This document shows, piece after piece, positions 1 through 59,250 of a stretch of DNA of 64,000 nt. Numbering within the stretch: position 1 is the stretch's first letter; each line of letters begins with the position of its first letter. The notes under the pieces are model-generated. The model saw only the letters and a list, made by a program, of their open reading frames with translations. It did not search any database and was not told the DNA's origin. The translations under genes were made by a program, and so were the position numbers. The DNA is from Octopus vulgaris (lineage: Eukaryota). The stretch lies in the NCBI GenBank assembly GCA_951406725.2, contig OX597818.1, positions 20,584,001 to 20,648,000 of the forward strand, read 5' to 3'.

Positions 1-1217
1 TGCACTTTTTGTTCACAGGTCTTGGTGGGGAGTGTTTTGCACATATGTCTGTGACGGTGTCTACAAAGATCTGCCAAGATGTTTTATGGTTGGTGGAGAT
101 GTGTGTATGTGTAAAGGACCAGTCAACATAGCTCGTTCCTGATTGCATCCCAGTTGGCTTTATGGAGATCCATGTTGTCAAATGGGTGGGCTGGAGGAAG
201 GTCACTAGGATTAGCTTTCGGCTGGTGGAATTTCATGTTACAGAGAACCATGTCATGGTCTGAAAGAAGGGTTTTTTCCACTGTAACGTTATGTATAGTG
301 TTAGTGTGGTTACTAAACACTAGGTCCAAAATGTTCTGATGTCTTGTTGGTGCAAGGACAAGTTGGGACAAGAAAAACTCATTCGTAAAGTCGAAAAGTG
401 ACTCTGCTGCTTCTTTGTCAGCGGTTGAGGCGGGAGTGCTTGGTTTCAAACAGTTTGTAGTCCAGTCAACACAGGGTAGATTGAAGTCTCCCATCATGAG
501 TATGTTGCTAGAATGGCACTGTTGAATAAAGTACTTAATGCTGTTGAGGCATTCTTTAAAGCACAGTATGGGTGTTTGGGGCGGCCTATAGAGCCCAATT
601 ACTGTCAGGTCATTGGCTTTGTTGTGCACGGTGACTGATTCACAGTAGCCGTTGGAGAATATACTATTTCCATCTGCCGTAAATGAATCATGCAGGAAAA
701 TGGCAGTTCCACCCTTCCTCCTGCCGATACGATCCGCGCGGATGGTTGTGAAATTCTTCACTCTCACTTCGGCTTCCAAGTGGGAGTTGTCAAGGTGGGT
801 CTCAGTGAGAATGAAGAAAGGGATGTGGTGTGAATGGTTACCAACCCAGTCTTCAATGAATTGGACCTTCCATTTTTGTGCATTGATGGAAGGGCTGACA
901 CTTTGTGCATTGAGTAGGAATGTGGAGGTTAGTGTAGTGGCTGGTTTTGACTGTTGCAGGGGGCTTGGATTTTTTGTGTGTGTTAGTGGCAGCAATGTGG
1001 GGAATTGGTGCACTGGGTTAATAGCATAGGATGGTGTTGAGTGATGGCTAGAATGTTTTTGTGTATCTCTTTTGCCATGTTCAACATGGCTAAAAAGAAT
1101 TTTCCTGCTTAGGGAGCAGTTTTTGGCTGGAGGTGTGGTTGCACTGTTGGATAGGGTTGTAGTTTCCACTTTTGTTGTTGTTGTTTTTGTGTCTTCCTGA
1201 AAAGACTGGACCAGCAT
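1..1217 (-). pseudogene. LINE ORF2 N-terminal AP endonuclease domain, frameshifted at about 125
   Basis: Motifs ILTETHL, DRIGRRKGGTAIF, GLYRPP, MGDFNLP, ILDLVF and SDHDMV. Past the TGA at 123-125 a shifted frame continues DWSFTH...SWQIFVDTVTDICAKHSP, a typical post-endonuclease linker. Confidence 0.9.
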
Positions 1218-2208
1218 TACTGCAGCATGGTGTGTTTCTATTTTTATTGTTATTCAGGTTTGTGTGTTGGCTTGAGGCCCCGTTTCTGTTTGTGCGTCGG
1301 GTCCCTGGAAGATGAGTGAAGGGACAGTCACTCAGTAGACATGTTCTCTCACGTTGGGAATACCGGCAGATTTTGGGACTCCGAGTTGTGTGTGTTTTGA
1401 ATTTCGATTTACTATTTGGTGGTGTTGATGTTATTGTGGGATGAGTGCTTTGGCCTTGGCCGGTAGTGCGTCTAGTGCCGGGTAGATGCGTGAAGATGCA
1501 GTCACTATTTGTGCAGAGTCTCTGGCGCAGTGAATAGCGGCATATTTGGGGATTTCTTGTTTGTGCCGTGGGGGGCGCATTCTGCTTCCTATGTTTCTTT
1601 AAGTTTTTGTTACTGCAGTAGTATTGAGGTGGTGATGTGGGGGAAGAGGGCAGTGGTTTCTTATTTGGTTTTCTGTTGGTATTTTTGGTGATAGAAGACG
1701 ATGGTGGCAGCGGTGGTGATGATGATGATAATAATTGTGGTGGTTGCTGTGAGAGCGGTGAAAAGATACTGGCATTTAGCGAATCATCTAGTAAGCTAGA
1801 GTTGAGGAGTGGCTGTTGTTGTTGTTGTTGCTGTGGCTGTTGTTGTTGTGCTTGACCGATGTTAGGGTCAGCCATTGTGCTGGGAACCAGGAGTGGCTCA
1901 TTCTGTTGTTGTTGTTGTTGTTGTGGCTGCTGATTTTCTAGCTATTGTTGTTCTTGAACTGTGAAAATATGTAGAAGCTTTTCATAATGGCCTCTTATCA
2001 GTTTGAAAGATACTTCGATATGTTTCAACTTGCTACGAATCTGTTTGACGGATCGTGTGTTGACCACTTGTGATGTTTTTTCGGCAATCTCATTCAAACA
2101 CAAGACATTTAGATTTTCTGTTTGGGAAAGAGAGAACCATGTGTTTATTAAAACATCAATTTCGTTATCAGACCAATTTCGTCTGTTGCAGGCCTGCAAG
2201 TTAGTCAT
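1090..2208 (-). pseudogene. LINE ORF1: Myb/SANT-like domain, poly-Q/S/P linker and two CCCH zinc fingers; one in-frame TAG at 1942-1944
   Basis: ATG at 2208 ([24 protein letters not shown]...[13 protein letters not shown]) is in frame with ORF 1090..1875 through a TAG inside a CAA/CAG run. The CCCH repeats are CRYSLRQRLCTNSDCIFTH and CRYSQRERTCLLSDCPFTH. Confidence 0.75.
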
Positions 2209-2362
2209 GTTTGTTTTTCTTTTGTTTGTTTTCCTTTTGATTTTTGAAAATATATATATTCTTTCTTGGGAGTTAAAGAAGTGTATATATATATAAATGT
2301 TCTCTCTTAAGGGTGTGAGTTTTTGATTATTTGGTTGTTTGAGGATATTAGAAGAAAAACAG

Positions 2363-2377
2363 GTGTATATAACAATT

Positions 2378-2737: not shown

Positions 2738-3044
2738 GGTGAAAAGGAACACACGAGTTGATATATATGAAAAAACAAGTAAAAAATAGAAAATGCTAAA
2801 ATAATTTTATAGTGAACATTTCAGTACCGGTTTCACAAGTGCAAACAAGGGAGTCAGAGAAAGGCAGAATGCCACTTAAATCTGAACACTACTATAGAAA
2901 TATTCTTTTAAAAAAACTTTTCTTCTAATTTTTCTAAATTTAATTATTTAATCGTTACAGTTGAAAAGGTCTCAAAATGACCGAAACCGGTACTGAAATG
3001 TTCACTATAAAATTATTTTAGCATTTTCTATTTTTTACTTGTTT

Positions 3045-3056
<12 letters not shown>
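2738..3056 (+). mobile_element. Penelope-like pLTR remnant as a foldback (arms 2761-2834 and 2983-3056) within (TA)n
   Basis: 74-bp inverted arms and an internal hammerhead fold; homologous copies at about 39638-39993 and 58941-59250. Confidence 0.7.
2958..2995 (+). ncRNA. Minimal type I hammerhead ribozyme, U3-A8 core variant
   Basis: CAG TTGAAAA GGTC-TCAAAAT-GACC GAAA CCGG TA CTG: stems I and II, palindromic stem III (ACCGGT) and a GUA site. Confidence 0.7.
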
Positions 3057-3117
<61 letters not shown>

Positions 3118-3120
<3 letters not shown>

Positions 3121-3300
3121 AGAGTTTACGAAAAAAACAAAAGACGAAGACAGGTGGTATACAAAACAAACAGATGTATTAGTATAACGCTCAGAAATAG
3201 AAAAAGTCTTTTACGTTTCAAGCCTACACTCTTCTACAGAAAAGGACACAGAAAACAAGGAGAGAAAAAAGGAGAGAAAAAAAGGAAAGAAAAAAAGGAT
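3118..3300 (-). mobile_element. Penelope-like pLTR fragment (CUGUNGA hammerhead family), hammerhead at about 3207-3245
   Basis: Minus strand CTTTT CTGTAGA A GAGT-GTAG-GCTT GAAA CG TA AAAGA; homologous to the copies at 13450, 30321 and 33277. Confidence 0.7.
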
Positions 3301-3422
3301 ATATACACAACTACATAAACACATGTACTATACCAATATATATATATATATATATATATGTATCTCTTCTTCCTTATACATATACATGTGTGTGTGTGTT
3401 TGTTTGTATGTATATATACCTA

Positions 3423-13452: not shown

Positions 13453-14348
13453 TGGAAATTTACAGAAAAGCAAAACACGAAGAGATGTGTATAAACAACA
13501 AACATGTGAATTAGTTTAACACTCGAGAAGGTGAGAAAGTTTTTTACGTTTTGAGCCTACGCTCCTCAACAGAAAGGAACACGATGAAACAAACAGAGAG
13601 AATAAAAAAAACTTCTGGAGCTACCGGTCAATCATGGCGGCTGGTTGGACAGAGGTAAGGAGAGTTAGGAAGAAGGGGTGATAATAAAGTATAGGTGATG
13701 TGTAGCGATGCGTTGTGGATAGCGGGGGTAACAATAAAGGGAGAAGGTAAGTAGGAGTGAATAGAGGAAGTAGTTGTTAGGGCAAGAGAGGAGAGGTGGG
13801 TAGGAGTGAAGAGAGGAAGTAGGTGTGGGTTGAAGAAAGGAGGAGGGGAGTCAGATGAAGAGGGGAGGGGACTTGAGCCCATTTGGTGCAAAAATGCGAA
13901 GAGAGAAGATTAATTCCTGTTCACAGCGAAGGCAGGAGTCCAGATGGCCCTTGTGCAAAGACAATCCAAACACAGACACGTGTTGTAATGAATGACATGG
14001 AGGGGTCGGAATGGAGTTGCCGGATGGCTCAGAGAATGGTGCGAAAGACAGGCAGGGTCGAGGGGTGGTTGGTGAGGGGAAACGGAAGACAGGTAACGGT
14101 GGGGCGGGTACAACGAGAAAGAGAGCAGAGGCGTATGTGTGTGTATATGTTTTTGTGTCTGTATTAGTCCCCCCAAAATCGCTTGACAACCGATGGTGGT
14201 GTGTTTACGTCCCCGTAACTAGCAGTTCGGCAGATAGATAAGTACTAGGCTTACAAAGAATAAGTCCTGGGGTGGATTTGCTCGACGAAAGTCGATGTTC
14301 CAGCATGGACGCAGTCAAATGACTGAAACAAGTAAAATAATAAAAGAA
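13201..14348 (+). mobile_element. SINE family A split by a Penelope-like insertion in its internal (TA)n
   Basis: Head at 13201-13355 and tail at about 14133-14348 are colinear halves. Confidence 0.75.
13450..13997 (-). mobile_element. 3' end of a Penelope-like retroelement: GIY-YIG C-terminus, pyrimidine-rich UTR and hammerhead (about 13540-13577)
   Basis: 13997->13851 encodes HSLQHVSVFGLSLHKGHLDSCLRCEQELIFSLRIFAPNGLKSPPLFI*, matching the HS..V.GL...EQ.LIF.L...P.GLN pattern of Penelope-like endonucleases. It is followed by CCTTT CTGTTGA G GAGC-GTAG-GCTC AAAA CG TA. Confidence 0.8.
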
Positions 14349-30320: not shown

Positions 30321-30530
30321 CAGGACGCCATGATAGATCGTTAGCTCCTACATGCATTTTTTTCTCTCCTTGTTTCTCTCCTTGTTTTTTTTCTGTGTAT
30401 CTTTCGGTCGAAGAGCGTAGGTTCGAAACGTAAAAGACTTTTTCTATTCCTGAGCGCTATACTAATACATTTGTTTGTTTGTATTCCACCTGCCTTCGTC
30501 TTTTGTTTATTTTCGTAAACCTTCCCTTTA
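30321..30530 (+). mobile_element. Penelope-like pLTR fragment with hammerhead-like fold at 30400-30437
   Basis: TCTTT CGGTCGA A GAGC-GTAG-GTTC GAAA CG TA AAAGA. Confidence 0.7.
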
Positions 30531-32891: not shown

Positions 32892-32956
32892 AGTGGACAC
32901 CCTATATGCTAAACATAGACGTCAAGACGTCTATGTTTAGCATATAGGTGTCCACT
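32892..32956. repeat. Near-perfect hairpin, arms of about 31 bp
   Basis: AGTGGACACC(C)TATATGCTAAACATAGACGTC-AA-GACGTCTATGTTTAGCATATAGGTGTCCACT. Confidence 0.9.
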
Positions 32957-33243: not shown

Positions 33244-33390
33244 ATACATATATATATATATATATATATACATATATTGTTGAAATTTACAGAAAAACAA
33301 AAGACGAAGACAGGTATATAAACAACAAACAGGTGTATTAGTTTAACGCTTGGGAAGGTGAGAAAATCTTTTAAGTTTCGAGCCTATACA

Positions 33391-33792
33391 TTATTACATA
33401 ACTGATATACAGTTATGTAATAATGGATGCTCTAAGATTTGAATATTACATTCTGGAGATGGTTTTCATCACGAAGAAAACCTTTACGAGCTCGCTTTCT
33501 CATATCAAGTACACTGTGATTTATTATATCAACTCTAATCGCCTTTCTGACGGAAGTTTGTAACAGCACGTAGGATCACATTTCGGGATGGTGTCTGTCG
33601 CTTTCCAAAATGCTGTTGGAGTTTTCTTTGGGCTGCAATGCTGGATCTTTGGCTGGTGAAGTATGCTTCGATCACGAATGCAATTTCTTATGAAGTTCAC
33701 GATATTATGGGGTTCACTCACACCAACTACCTAAAAAAATAGCAAAATCTTAGATAATATGTCGCACTCCTGTATATCAGTTATGGAATAAA
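33391..33792. mobile_element. Element bounded by terminal inverted repeats, truncating a pLTR fragment (33277-33388)
   Basis: Termini TTATTACATAACTGATATACAG and CTGTATATCAGTTATGGAATAA. Confidence 0.55.
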
Positions 33793-34169: not shown

Positions 34170-36504
34170 TTCTCATGAGACCCAACCGTCCAGATGGTAT
34201 TACTGCAGATGGTCATGGAGACGATGTTGCTAATGAAGTGCAACTTGAAAAGAAGATAGAGATGAAGCTGATGATGCTGATCCACCATAAACTACTGAAT
34301 AACATAACTCTAATATTAATTTGAAAGACAGTGGGATGTGGCCTGATAAGCTTTATCACGGTAACGGTATTCGGGAAATCCTTGTGCAACAAGGATCGAA
34401 GGGTGTGCATAATATTGACTGTGAATTCAAAGAAATTGTACGCCCAGGACAAATGACAAAACTGAAAGAGAAGACTAGAAGACGGTCAAGAAACTGGTTT
34501 TTTAGAACTTTACAAAACGGAGAAAAAATCTTCAGAACTTGGATGACATACTCTCCATCGAAATAAGCCGTGTTTTGTTTTTGTTGTAAGCTATTTTCAA
34601 GTGAAAACTCAAAGTTTTGCTCAGTTGATGGTTTCAAATCTTGATGGAAGTTGATACAAGATCATGAATCTAGCCTTGCGCATGAGAATGCATTTACTCA
34701 GTGGAAAGAGCGAGAAATTCGCCTTTCCAAAGGCAATGTAATAGACAAATAACAACAAACTCTTGTTGAAAATGAAACAAAGAAATGGACATAATTATGT
34801 TTCGTGTTAAGCAAAACCTAACTTTACGAGGCCACAGAGAAGACATTCGAGTTGAGAAGGCAAATGAAAATAAAGGAAATATTCTAGAGCTTCATCAACT
34901 GATTGGAAAATTCGACCCAGTGCTACGTGAACATTTGGTGAAAGTAAAAATCGATAAGTTTACAACTTCCTATCTCTCACCAAAAATTCAGAATGAATTT
35001 GTTAACGTCCTGGGAGATCAAGTGAGAATCAAAGTTATCGATGAAGTGTAACAGAGTGAATACTATTGCATTATTTTTGATAGTACTCCAGACATTTCTC
35101 ATATTGATCAAATTTCTCAGGTGCCACGTTATGTTAAAATAGGTGAAAAAGAAGTGAAAGTAGAAGAATCCTTTCTTCGTTTTATTGAGATAAAAGGCAA
35201 AAATACTGAGCAAATTACATCAACGATTCTGAAACAATTAGAAATGGACGACATTAACATTCAAGACTGTCGTGGACAAACATTTGTTAATGTGGCAATA
35301 ATGGCAGGTCATCGAGCCGGTGTTCAAGCGCACATCACAGAAGTTAATCCAAAGATTGTATTTGTGCCATGCTCCGATTACTCTCTGAATTTAGCAGCTA
35401 TGCATGCAGCTTCAGCGGATGCTGATTCAATTACAGTTTTAGCACATTGAACCGTTTACTTTCATTCTTCTCAGCCACAACTCACCGATGGGATATCTTG
35501 ATTGAGATAACTGGTGCAGCTTTCAAACGGGCTGGGGAAACGAGATGGAATAGTCGAGCAGATGCAGTAAAAGCTGTACATATAAACTTAAAATTCACGA
35601 AAATCATTGTTGTGCTAGAACGGTTGATGGAAGATGCAGAAAACACAACTTCGAGATCTGATGCAGGTTTAATTCTGTCATTTTCTTTTTTGTCGTTTCT
35701 TAGCCTTTGGAGAGATATACTTCCTGAAATTAATGACACTCAAAAGTACCTCCAAACAAAAGGTCTAGAGTTGCAACAATGTGCCATTAAACTATCAGCG
35801 TTGAAAACTTCTCTACTTGTAAGCAGAGACAAAACAGTAGATGACGCGTTGGCCTATTTAACCGAAATTTGTTCTGAAATGGGAATCAGCACAGAGCGTC
35901 GAATTCGCAAAAAGAAAAGAATGAGTTATGAAGAAAGTATCGATGCCGCCCTCAGCTACGACGCTGAGCTAAGGAAGAGAAATGTTATCAGTGATAGATA
36001 GACTGGTTGAAGAAATAACCTCTAGATTGGAAAGACTTCACGATATTGCAAAGAAATACACCTTTCTTACACCGTTCAATTTGTTAGATAAAGAGTGTAA
36101 TTGTGATGGAGATGCTTTTGATGAGAATATTAAAAGAGAAGACTTTCTGATTGAAAGGGCAAGACTGCAAAATTATTTGGCAGCTGCTGACGCTGAAGAC
36201 ATGGAAGGGCCTTTGCAAGTTCTTCAGTTTATTCAGAAATATAATCTTATTGATTCATTGCCAAATATTGTAATATTGTAATATTTTTAAGGACTTCTTA
36301 AATCGTGCCATTACTGTTGCTAGCTGCGAACGGTCCTTTTCTAAACTAAAGCTTATCAAGAACCACCTCAGGTCAACAATAATTCAAACAAGGTTGACTG
36401 ATTTGGCAATACTATCCATAGAGCGCGACCTTGCGGATAAAATTAATTTTGATGAAGTCGTTCAAGATTTCACGAAGAGTAAGGCACGTAAAATAAATTT
36501 ATAA
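34170..36504 (+). pseudogene. Decayed hAT transposase (ZMYM1-like, DUF4371 plus C-terminal dimerization domain)
   Basis: LTLRGHRE, GNILELHQLIGKFDPVLREHL, YLSPKIQNEF, DSTPDISHIDQ, DCRGQ, ETRWNSR and SCERSFSKLKLIKNHLRST; many stops and frameshifts. Confidence 0.92.
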
Positions 36505-36843
36505 ATCGTTTATTTTTGTAATTCACCCATTTTCTGTTCTTTAACATATTTTTCCTATCATTTTTTGTGTATAAACATAATAAAAGTAAGCAATAATAAA
36601 TCTGTGAACGAGATGTAAATAGTAACCGCTCGACAACGTAAAGTATACTAGCCATCTCAATATGGCTAACCACTAAGGGTGGGTGTTACTGTAGCTTGTA
36701 GCCCCAGGAGAACATCGTCTCCAGCTGGCATTAGGCACACTTTCTGTGCCCTTATGATATTTGCAAAGGGAGGTCATCCCTCTCTCGTAAACCTAAGTGA
36801 TACGCACGGACTGCAGTTTCGAGGTATTTGCCTCTTGTCAACG

Positions 36844-36955
36844 TCGGCCCGAGGCTATAGTAGGAGACACTTGCCCAAGTTGTCACGCAGTGGGACTGAA
36901 CGCGGAACTATGTGGTTCGTAAGCAAGCTACTTACCACACAGCCACTCCTACGCC
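36844..36955 (-). mobile_element. SINE family A head
   Basis: Homology. Confidence 0.8.
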
Positions 36956-39582: not shown

Positions 39583-40137
<555 letters not shown>

Positions 40138-40618: not shown

Positions 40619-40732
<114 letters not shown>

Positions 40733-40785
40733 CGGAGATGTACTCGCATAAAAGTAATTTGATCTGAGATCGTGTGCTGAAACGA

Positions 40786-41078
40786 AAACAATTGCAGCGT
40801 GGGAGGTGTTTATAAGCCATTTAAGAAACACACAAAAGCCGTTCGATTCACTCCAACATTTAAGTTTAATTTGTCAAAATATTTTCGTCGCTAAAATCCG
40901 CGACCTGTTCACTGACAAAGTCCGTGCTGAGATGCAGCACGGACTTTGTCAGTGAACAGGTCGCGGATTTTAGCGACGAAAATATTTTGACAAATTAAAC
41001 TTAAATGTTGGAGTGAATCGAACGGCTTTTGTGTGTTTCTTAAATGGCTTATAAACACCTCCCACGCTGCAATTGTTT
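40786..41078. repeat. Palindrome with 144-bp arms (40786-40929 and 40935-41078) and a 5-nt spacer; Penelope-like foldback
   Basis: Arms read as exact reverse complements; flanked by (TA)n. Confidence 0.93.
40945..40994 (+). ncRNA. Minimal type I hammerhead, G3-C8 core variant (mirror copy at 40870-40919 on the minus strand)
   Basis: TTTGTCA GTGAACA G GTCGC-GGATTTTA-GCGAC GAAA ATAT TT TGACAAA: 7-bp stem I, 5-bp stem II and palindromic stem III. Confidence 0.75.
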
Positions 41079-44859: not shown

Positions 44860-45125
44860 TATATTAATCAGAATAAAAACATGATTCAAAGGATTTAGCG
44901 GTACATATGTTTCGGGCCTTTATTAGACGGTTTTATAACAATGCATAATTGATGTAAATGTGTGTCTATGTCCTTCTGTCCTTGAAGTAGTCATTGTACG
45001 CGGCTGAAGAAGGCCATAGACACATATTTACATCAATTATGCATTGTTATAAAACCGTCTAATAAAGGCCCGAAACATATGTACCGCTAAATCCTTTGAA
45101 TCATGTTTTTATTCTGATTAATATA
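44860..45125. repeat. Foldback with arms of about 118 bp (44860-44977 and 45008-45125); Penelope-like
   Basis: Near-exact inverted arms with a 30-nt spacer. Confidence 0.9.
45000..45087 (+). ncRNA. Type I hammerhead with canonical CUGAAGA core and a long loop II
   Basis: GCGG CTGAAGA AGGCC-(about 50 nt)-GGCCC GAAA CATATG TA CCGC. Confidence 0.75.
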
Positions 45126-58940: not shown

Positions 58941-59250
58941 GGAAAAAAAGTCAAATTAGAAAATGCTAAAATAATTTTATAAAAAACATTTCAGTACCGG
59001 TTTCAATCATTGAGACTTTTTCAACTGTAACAATTAAATAATTAAATTTAGAAAAATTAGAAGAAAAGTTTTTTTAAAAGAATATTTTTATAGTGTTCAA
59101 ATACAAGTGGTATTTTCCTTGTTTCTGCCTGTCTCTGTCTCTCTTGTTTACTCTTGTGGGTTCGAGGTCCTTGTGAATTCTTGGTAGGAAAGAGGAGAAG
59201 AAAAAGAAGGAGGAGGAGGAGGAGAAGGGGAAGAAGAAGAAGAATTTCAT
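58941..59250 (-). mobile_element. Penelope-like pLTR (U3-A8 family), hammerhead at about 58992-59027
   Basis: CAG TTGAAAA AGTC-TCAAT-GATT GAAA CCGG TA CTG. Confidence 0.7.

Follow-up and report, generated by a model that had tools for sequence, protein, structure and literature searches.

U3-A8 hammerhead motifs in a dispersed, high-copy (TA)n-ended repeat of Octopus vulgaris, probably a Penelope-like element end

Results

Sequence context

The window analysed here, a stretch of 64,000 nucleotides from Octopus vulgaris (contig OX597818.1), is microsatellite-rich eukaryotic DNA with many SINE copies, probably of octopus type. Pfam searches over 120 selected frames identified a LINE endonuclease and a hAT transposase only. 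The first of the repeats described below (copy 1) lies just upstream of the LINE 5' part, across a long microsatellite.

1-2370, minus strand: LINE 5' part with Myb/SANT-like, CCCH-finger and APE endonuclease frames (Pfam)
126-1253, minus strand: LINE APE endonuclease frame (Pfam)
34776-36501, plus strand: fragmented hAT transposase with DUF4371 and hAT dimerisation domain (Pfam)

Three copies of a minimal type I hammerhead

The original prediction placed identical hammerhead motifs at 2958 (plus strand) and 39691 (minus strand), and a third at about 58992 (minus strand) in which stem II had changed from GGTC/GACC to AGTC/GATT and the loop was shorter, with core and ACCGGT unchanged. Sequence comparison confirmed both statements. 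Copy 2 shows no difference from copy 1 over 38 nt, and copy 3 carries three substitutions, all in stem II, together with a 2-nt loop deletion, its core, ACCGGT palindrome and stem I being the same as in copy 1. We refer to these motifs as family A.

2958-2995, plus strand: copy 1 motif, minimal type I hammerhead, 38 nt (sequence, folding, descriptor, Rfam)
2958-2960 and 2993-2995, plus strand: copy 1 stem I
2961-2967, plus strand: copy 1 core, from U3 at 2961 to A8
2968-2971 and 2979-2982, plus strand: copy 1 stem II
2983-2985, plus strand: copy 1 GAA
2986-2991, plus strand: copy 1 stem III palindrome (ACCGGT)
2992, plus strand: copy 1 N17 (the A of GUA), predicted cut 2992/2993
39691-39728, minus strand: copy 2 motif, 38 nt, N17 at 39694 (sequence comparison)
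58992-59027, minus strand: copy 3 motif, 36 nt, 5-nt loop, N17 at 58995 (sequence comparison)

The hammerhead core is complete in all three copies (U3-A8, G5, A6, A9, G12-A14 and U16.1-A17), and the helices follow the type I layout, with 3 bp in helix I, 4 bp in helix II and a palindromic helix III that pairs between two copies. In copy 3, stem II AGTC/GATT forms an A10.1-U11.1 pair followed by a G10.2-U11.2 wobble. The predicted cut after 2992 falls at a position that fits the hammerhead reading.

The host repeat, its inverted arms and tails

Each of the three motifs sits in its own copy of a single repeat, 150-220 nt long, whose end abuts (TA)n/(CA)n.

2835-3049, plus strand: copy 1 direct repeat, 5'-truncated, putative PLE pseudo-LTR end
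2761-2834, minus strand: copy 1 inverted arm, its 74 nt all complementary to 2983-3056
2739-2760, minus strand: copy 1 tail past a short TA run, on the inverted arm only
3050-3117, no strand: (TA)n tract 3' of copy 1, putative target site
39640-39790, minus strand: body of the direct repeat of copy 2 (96% to copy 1), ending at (TA)n
39790-39874, plus strand: copy 2 inverted arm and tail, the arm shorter than that of copy 1
58943-59158, minus strand: body of the repeat of copy 3 (84% to copy 1), ending at (CA)n/(TA)n

Insertions of Penelope-like elements (PLEs) are described as having an inverted 5'-truncated copy, a tail of 30-40 bp at one end and a bias towards (TA)n (PMC8557442). In two of the three copies we found this layout, an inverted 5'-truncated arm with a one-sided tail; none was seen for copy 3. 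The arm of copy 2 covers two of the three bases of the 3' strand of stem I. The 22-nt tail is common to copies 1 and 2 and is reached from both arms via a short TA run, and in one public contig (run X7) the sense copy runs on into the tail's first bases. In all three copies the repeat stops at (TA)n or (CA)n(TA)n, tracts that are very common in the window. Their 5' ends differ (2835, the equivalent of 2900, and beyond the equivalent of 2835), and public contigs extend past the 5' end of the repeat stretch, by 258 and 172 nt in two records.

Each copy is single, the window containing no tandem copies, and go-back joints pointing to a tandem unit were absent from three of four runs, X14 having one record that joins 2871 to 2835. 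Neither a PLE reverse transcriptase nor a GIY-YIG domain was found by Pfam among the 120 selected window frames, and the family A copies are too short to reach such a frame. Protein searches, including Atlas, with the short frames upstream of the copies (40 and 47 aa) gave nothing usable and no named family. Between the tail of copy 2 and the next (TA)n lie 120 nt (39875-39995) containing an open frame of 40 codons (minus strand).

Other hammerhead-like families in the window

Four further hammerhead-like families, B, C, D and F, were located in the same 64 kb.

36806-36844, minus strand: family B, U3-A8, GUC cut at 36809, occurring once in the window
40730-41078: family C, inverted repeat (98%) set in (TA)n, with a tail of 55 nt on one side
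40945-40994 and its mirror, plus strand: family C motif, G3-C8, inverted pair
44860-45125: family D inverted repeat with a C3-G8 motif from 45004 (plus strand)
3116-3330 (minus), 13459-13602 (minus), 30357-30527 (plus) and 33286-33389 (minus strand): four copies of family F

Family B, with a 4-bp stem II, a 6-nt loop and an 8-nt palindrome, is fused without a gap to a SINE head of 118 nt that precedes it, and some 170 nt of hairpin-rich sequence come after it. Each arm of family C has a G3-C8 core with an extra base after A9, a 5-bp stem II, a 7-bp stem I and an AATATT palindrome. In family D the stem II region measures 61 nt and the palindrome 8 nt, the first stem II pair being mismatched in the window copy. 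Family F has U at position 6 in the three copies that keep the core, a 4-bp stem II and an ACGT palindrome, and its copy at 3116-3330 stands tail-to-tail with family A copy 1 across one shared (TA)n tract. Two of these families combine a hammerhead with an inverted arm, and all four lend support to a PLE reading of family A. Two short near-perfect palindromes beside microsatellites (32892-32956 and 33386-33428) were also noted, in which no hammerhead core was seen.

Frequency of the motif relative to chance

To scan the window we utilized a strict descriptor requiring a Watson-Crick 3:8 core, a stem II of at least 4 bp, a palindromic stem III and a stem I of at least 3 bp; this descriptor, composed after the motif had been seen, gave six matches in the window against one match summed over 100 block-wise dinucleotide shuffles. 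The three family A motifs do not count as independent occurrences, because they are embedded in longer homologous repeats. Together with the complete core, this enrichment is in line with the predicted hammerhead with a U3-A8 pair. The fold energy of the 38-mer was not significant (z = -1.07, 28 of 200 shuffles being equally good). Rfam gave no match at the gathering score over the whole window, and a weak match to Hammerhead_HH9 (RF02275) at 2947-3011, which scores 19.7 bits (E 0.013) where the gathering threshold is 52. A pattern scan of viral contigs and a literature search with the short motif each returned no matches. Two metagenome pattern loci (L001 and L002) were rejected as chance matches; they lie in the same bacterial coding region, have no stem II and show no similarity to the window. 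That region is presumably succinyl-CoA-synthetase-like.

Variation across public copies

The repeat stretch was present in 20 of the 24 listed public runs, spanning 14 studies and 8 organism codes, with at least 0.88 of the sampled words; in 10 of the 14 studies no row was flagged as a possible source of the sequence. Four runs yielded 2950, 1585, 17 and 23 matching contigs. In the two large runs the summed depth was 0.16-1.3 million, whereas the long pieces listed had about 20-160; this is a rough sign of very many copies and not a copy number.

In these two deep runs, the only motif substitutions listed at a frequency of at least 2% were G2968A and C2982T, the partners of pair 10.1-11.1. At that threshold, variation affected 2 of the motif's 38 positions and 12 of 177 in the flanks (Fisher p = 1.0); the lack of variation at all 22 invariant-type positions falls short of significance (p = 0.37). 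A comparison of copy 1 with copy 3 shows one difference in the 58 nt upstream, as against differences in 5 of 38 columns within the motif. With a flank upstream that has changed less than the motif itself, the constancy of the core does not point to selection.

Among loose contig ends that break at the loop deletion, the 5' side reads AGTC in 27 and 25 contigs, and the 3' side reads GACT in 14 contigs of X14. Judging by these ends, there is a subfamily in which the G-C pair at 10.1-11.1 has been swapped for A-U, and copy 3 joins both changes on one molecule. Its G-U wobble, caused by a change at the equivalent of 2981, is absent from the listed variants and looks private. As C2982T (10-20%) is commoner than G2968A (0.3-4%), some copies may have G-U at 10.1-11.1 rather than a compensated pair. 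When three random substitutions and a 2-nt deletion were simulated, the fold was kept in just 0.9-2.5% of cases. No change was seen in helix I or helix III within family A. The covariation amounts to one G-C to A-U event, inherited and compensatory, which is suggestive but not proof. The original prediction had seen here the pattern expected of a selected RNA structure. The compensatory swap and the rarity with which the fold survives random change speak for this, but the argument is weaker than was claimed, given the restriction to one repeat family and a motif no more conserved than its flanks.

In run X16, which we guess to be RNA, one contig shows roughly 18 T>C changes, and in others A>G changes are clustered (at 6 places); the regions concerned are 2870-2949 and 2998-3015. 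These clusters look like A-to-I hyper-editing of double-stranded repeat RNA.

Predicted folding of monomers and dimers

Stem III has no room to fold within one molecule, and ACCGGU is self-complementary. In cofolding predictions, two 38-mers each form stem II and are joined by a 6-bp intermolecular ACCGGU helix, with an energy of -21.1 kcal/mol as against -6.6 kcal/mol per monomer; the ACCGGU duplex taken alone gives -8.3 kcal/mol, and the palindrome is of the kind used in PLE dimer folding. On its own, one 38-mer is not expected to cleave; cleavage after GUA is predicted only for a pair held together via ACCGGU. Since the monomer is predicted to be inactive, a negative cleavage assay on monomers would not refute the hammerhead reading.

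The 3-bp stem I reached a probability of 0.02 or less in every locus-length fold of family A, with or without the arm. In read-through RNA, the inverted arm of copy 1 is predicted to pair with 2983-3056, burying the GAA, the palindrome, the cut site and the 3' strand of stem I, so that core and cut site are fully paired. Two further candidates were rejected: an extended stem I with a tertiary contact, which common variants at 2999 and 3000 break, and an anole-type ORF start at the loop II ATG (2977), which opens only 14 codons.

A possible intron end at stem I

An AG-free, T/A-rich tract with a branch-point-like heptamer precedes the core and closes in CAG, which is the 5' strand of stem I of family A.

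2898-2960, plus strand: AG-free T/A-rich tract, branch-point-like heptamer at 2923-2929, ending in CAG

Such a tract, AG-free over 63 nt and with a branch-like heptamer, occurs at 21 of the 2603 YAG sites in complex window DNA, three of which are family A, and the tract is kept in the second subfamily, as seen in the loose ends of public contigs. It is possible, by analogy, that it marks an intron 3' end; in Drosophila virilis Penelope an intron end is described next to helix I (PMC4209133). Copies 1 and 3 share no conserved donor GT, and neither the contig joints nor the 24 loose ends displayed out of 164 revealed a splice junction. A broader proposal, which we regard as speculative and rather doubtful, holds that the 5' strand of stem I is an intron 3' splice site, with splicing removing or exchanging stem I and thereby switching the ribozyme, and that PLE families with U3-A8, G3-C8, C3-G8 and U6 cores co-exist in the octopus genome as a natural series.

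Discussion

Relation to known systems

With the U3-A8 PLE hammerheads of Schistosoma mansoni (Cervera and de la Pena 2014, PMC4209133), family A shares the UUGAAAA core, a short helix I and a palindromic helix III, as well as U-rich upstream and AU-rich downstream sequence, mostly single dispersed motifs and nearby opposite-strand pairs. It differs in its 4-bp helix II, its 6-nt palindrome, the A10.1-U11.1 subfamily and its host, and no parent ORF was found. The UUGAAAA core is given for S. mansoni(4), which is marked as PLE-associated, and about 1,300 U3-A8 matches are stated for S. mansoni (PMC4209133). The PLE consensus described in that paper runs from a U-rich segment through a 3-bp helix I, the core, a G..C helix II, GAAA, a palindrome and NUH to an AU-rich segment; it includes one additional base between 9 and 10.1, and its G10.1-C11.1 pair is conserved. 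In family A the extra base is absent from all three copies, as it is from the Marsupenaeus PLE motif (PMC4209133), and pair 10.1-11.1 is G-C in two copies and A-U in one. The D. virilis Penelope hammerhead is alike in its short palindromic helix III and in a splice-acceptor-like AG 5' of helix I; there the intron that was shown ends 4 nt before C3, whereas the intron suggested for family A would end directly before U3.

The (TA)n-targeting PLEs of the Neptune/Naiad type (Craig et al. 2021, PMC8557442) resemble the octopus repeat in 5' truncation, an inverted 5' copy, a one-sided tail and (TA)n ends. In that account Naiads are without canonical hammerheads, unlike family A, and assigning family A to a PLE clade requires protein sequence. 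Non-LTR retrozymes (PMC7229834) are likewise non-coding, AT-rich and of many copies with a type I hammerhead; they are described as tandem units of 150-450 bp with a hammerhead in each, whereas family A is not tandem, has no canonical extended stem I and carries inverted arms. Rfam Hammerhead_HH9 agrees in type I topology, a 4-bp stem II and a CAAAA-type loop, but family A scores far under its gathering threshold and has no long stem I.

Interpretation of the repeat and its motif

We consider it probable that the motifs lie in a dispersed, high-copy, (TA)n-ended repeat representing the 5'-truncated pseudo-LTR end of a PLE, and that they are minimal type I hammerheads predicted to cleave after GUA as palindrome-paired dimers. 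It seems highly improbable that the motif is a chance look-alike in A/T-rich repeat DNA that was multiplied together with its repeat. Such an origin would suit a single family, which is a single draw, fold z-scores that fail significance, a score under the Rfam threshold and a metagenome search whose only two pattern matches were chance matches within a bacterial gene; it accounts poorly for just one descriptor match across 100 shuffles, the compensatory stem II swap, the PLE-type layout and four unrelated families of the same architecture in the same 64 kb.

A different question is whether the repeat is the broken end of a coding element or a short non-autonomous unit, such as a non-LTR retrozyme or a SINE-like element, that borrows the PLE enzyme. 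The second alternative appears unlikely. In its favour, the 120 selected window frames and the short upstream frames yielded no PLE coding frame, copies 1 and 3 differ upstream by frame-breaking indels, very many near-identical short copies exist, and animal retrozymes have been argued to derive from PLE pseudo-LTRs (bioRxiv 10.64898/2026.07.22.740005). Against this, retrozymes are described as tandem arrays of mostly canonical type I motifs (PMC7229834) and the window copies are single, their 5' ends differ, inverted arms are present, and contigs continue beyond the 5' end of the stretch. Cleavage itself may be questioned as well, in that a PLE-derived motif could have been kept as a fold or a protein-binding site without useful cleavage in family A. 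This we find doubtful, even with a stem I that does not form in locus-length folds, with metazoan PLE motifs that are reported to cleave poorly even as dimers (PMC4209133) and with anole element reads described as lacking ends at the cut site (PMC11167929), because the 3:8 pair, which is important for catalysis, is Watson-Crick in all five window families (U-A, U-A, G-C, C-G and C-G), and because natural U3-A8 motifs have been reported and such pairs are active in vitro (PMC3088659).

Returning to the PLE end, the following course of events can be envisaged. A full-length or tandem parent element with two pseudo-LTRs would be transcribed, and its two motifs, in which the U3-A8 pair would take the place of C3-G8, would form a double hammerhead that trims the RNA, perhaps aided by the element's protein. 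Reverse transcription would begin downstream of the motif, leaving the tail, and would usually stop early, giving short ends like these. A double-hammerhead arrangement has been proposed for PLE motifs, whose monomers did not cleave and whose dimers did so weakly in the reported assays (PMC4209133, PMC6765202). For the anole PLE, cleavage in vitro is reported to have needed protein and to have been dispensable for insertion, and tails are explained there by internal reverse transcription start sites (PMC11167929). The three window copies are likely to be passive leftovers, as each is single and the arm of copy 1 would pair with the 3' half of its motif.

Both the presence of hammerheads in PLE ends and the U3-A8 pair have been published before, and family A is a further family of this type. 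The role of these ribozymes for PLEs is described as still open (PMC8557442, PMC11167929). Thirty-one recently active PLE families appear in a repeat annotation of O. vulgaris, the main text of which mentions neither 'ribozyme' nor 'hammerhead' (PMC13282606). We found no paper on cephalopod PLE hammerheads; the supplements of PMC4209133 and of bioRxiv 10.64898/2026.07.22.740005 may list such motifs. Natural G3-C8 and U6 hammerhead cores were not found in the literature searched, which excluded Lunse et al. 2017. A very-high-copy family together with sister families that have different cores would permit a well-powered covariation test, and the occurrence of these sister families in one genome would permit a side-by-side comparison of cleavage by natural 3:8 pairs.
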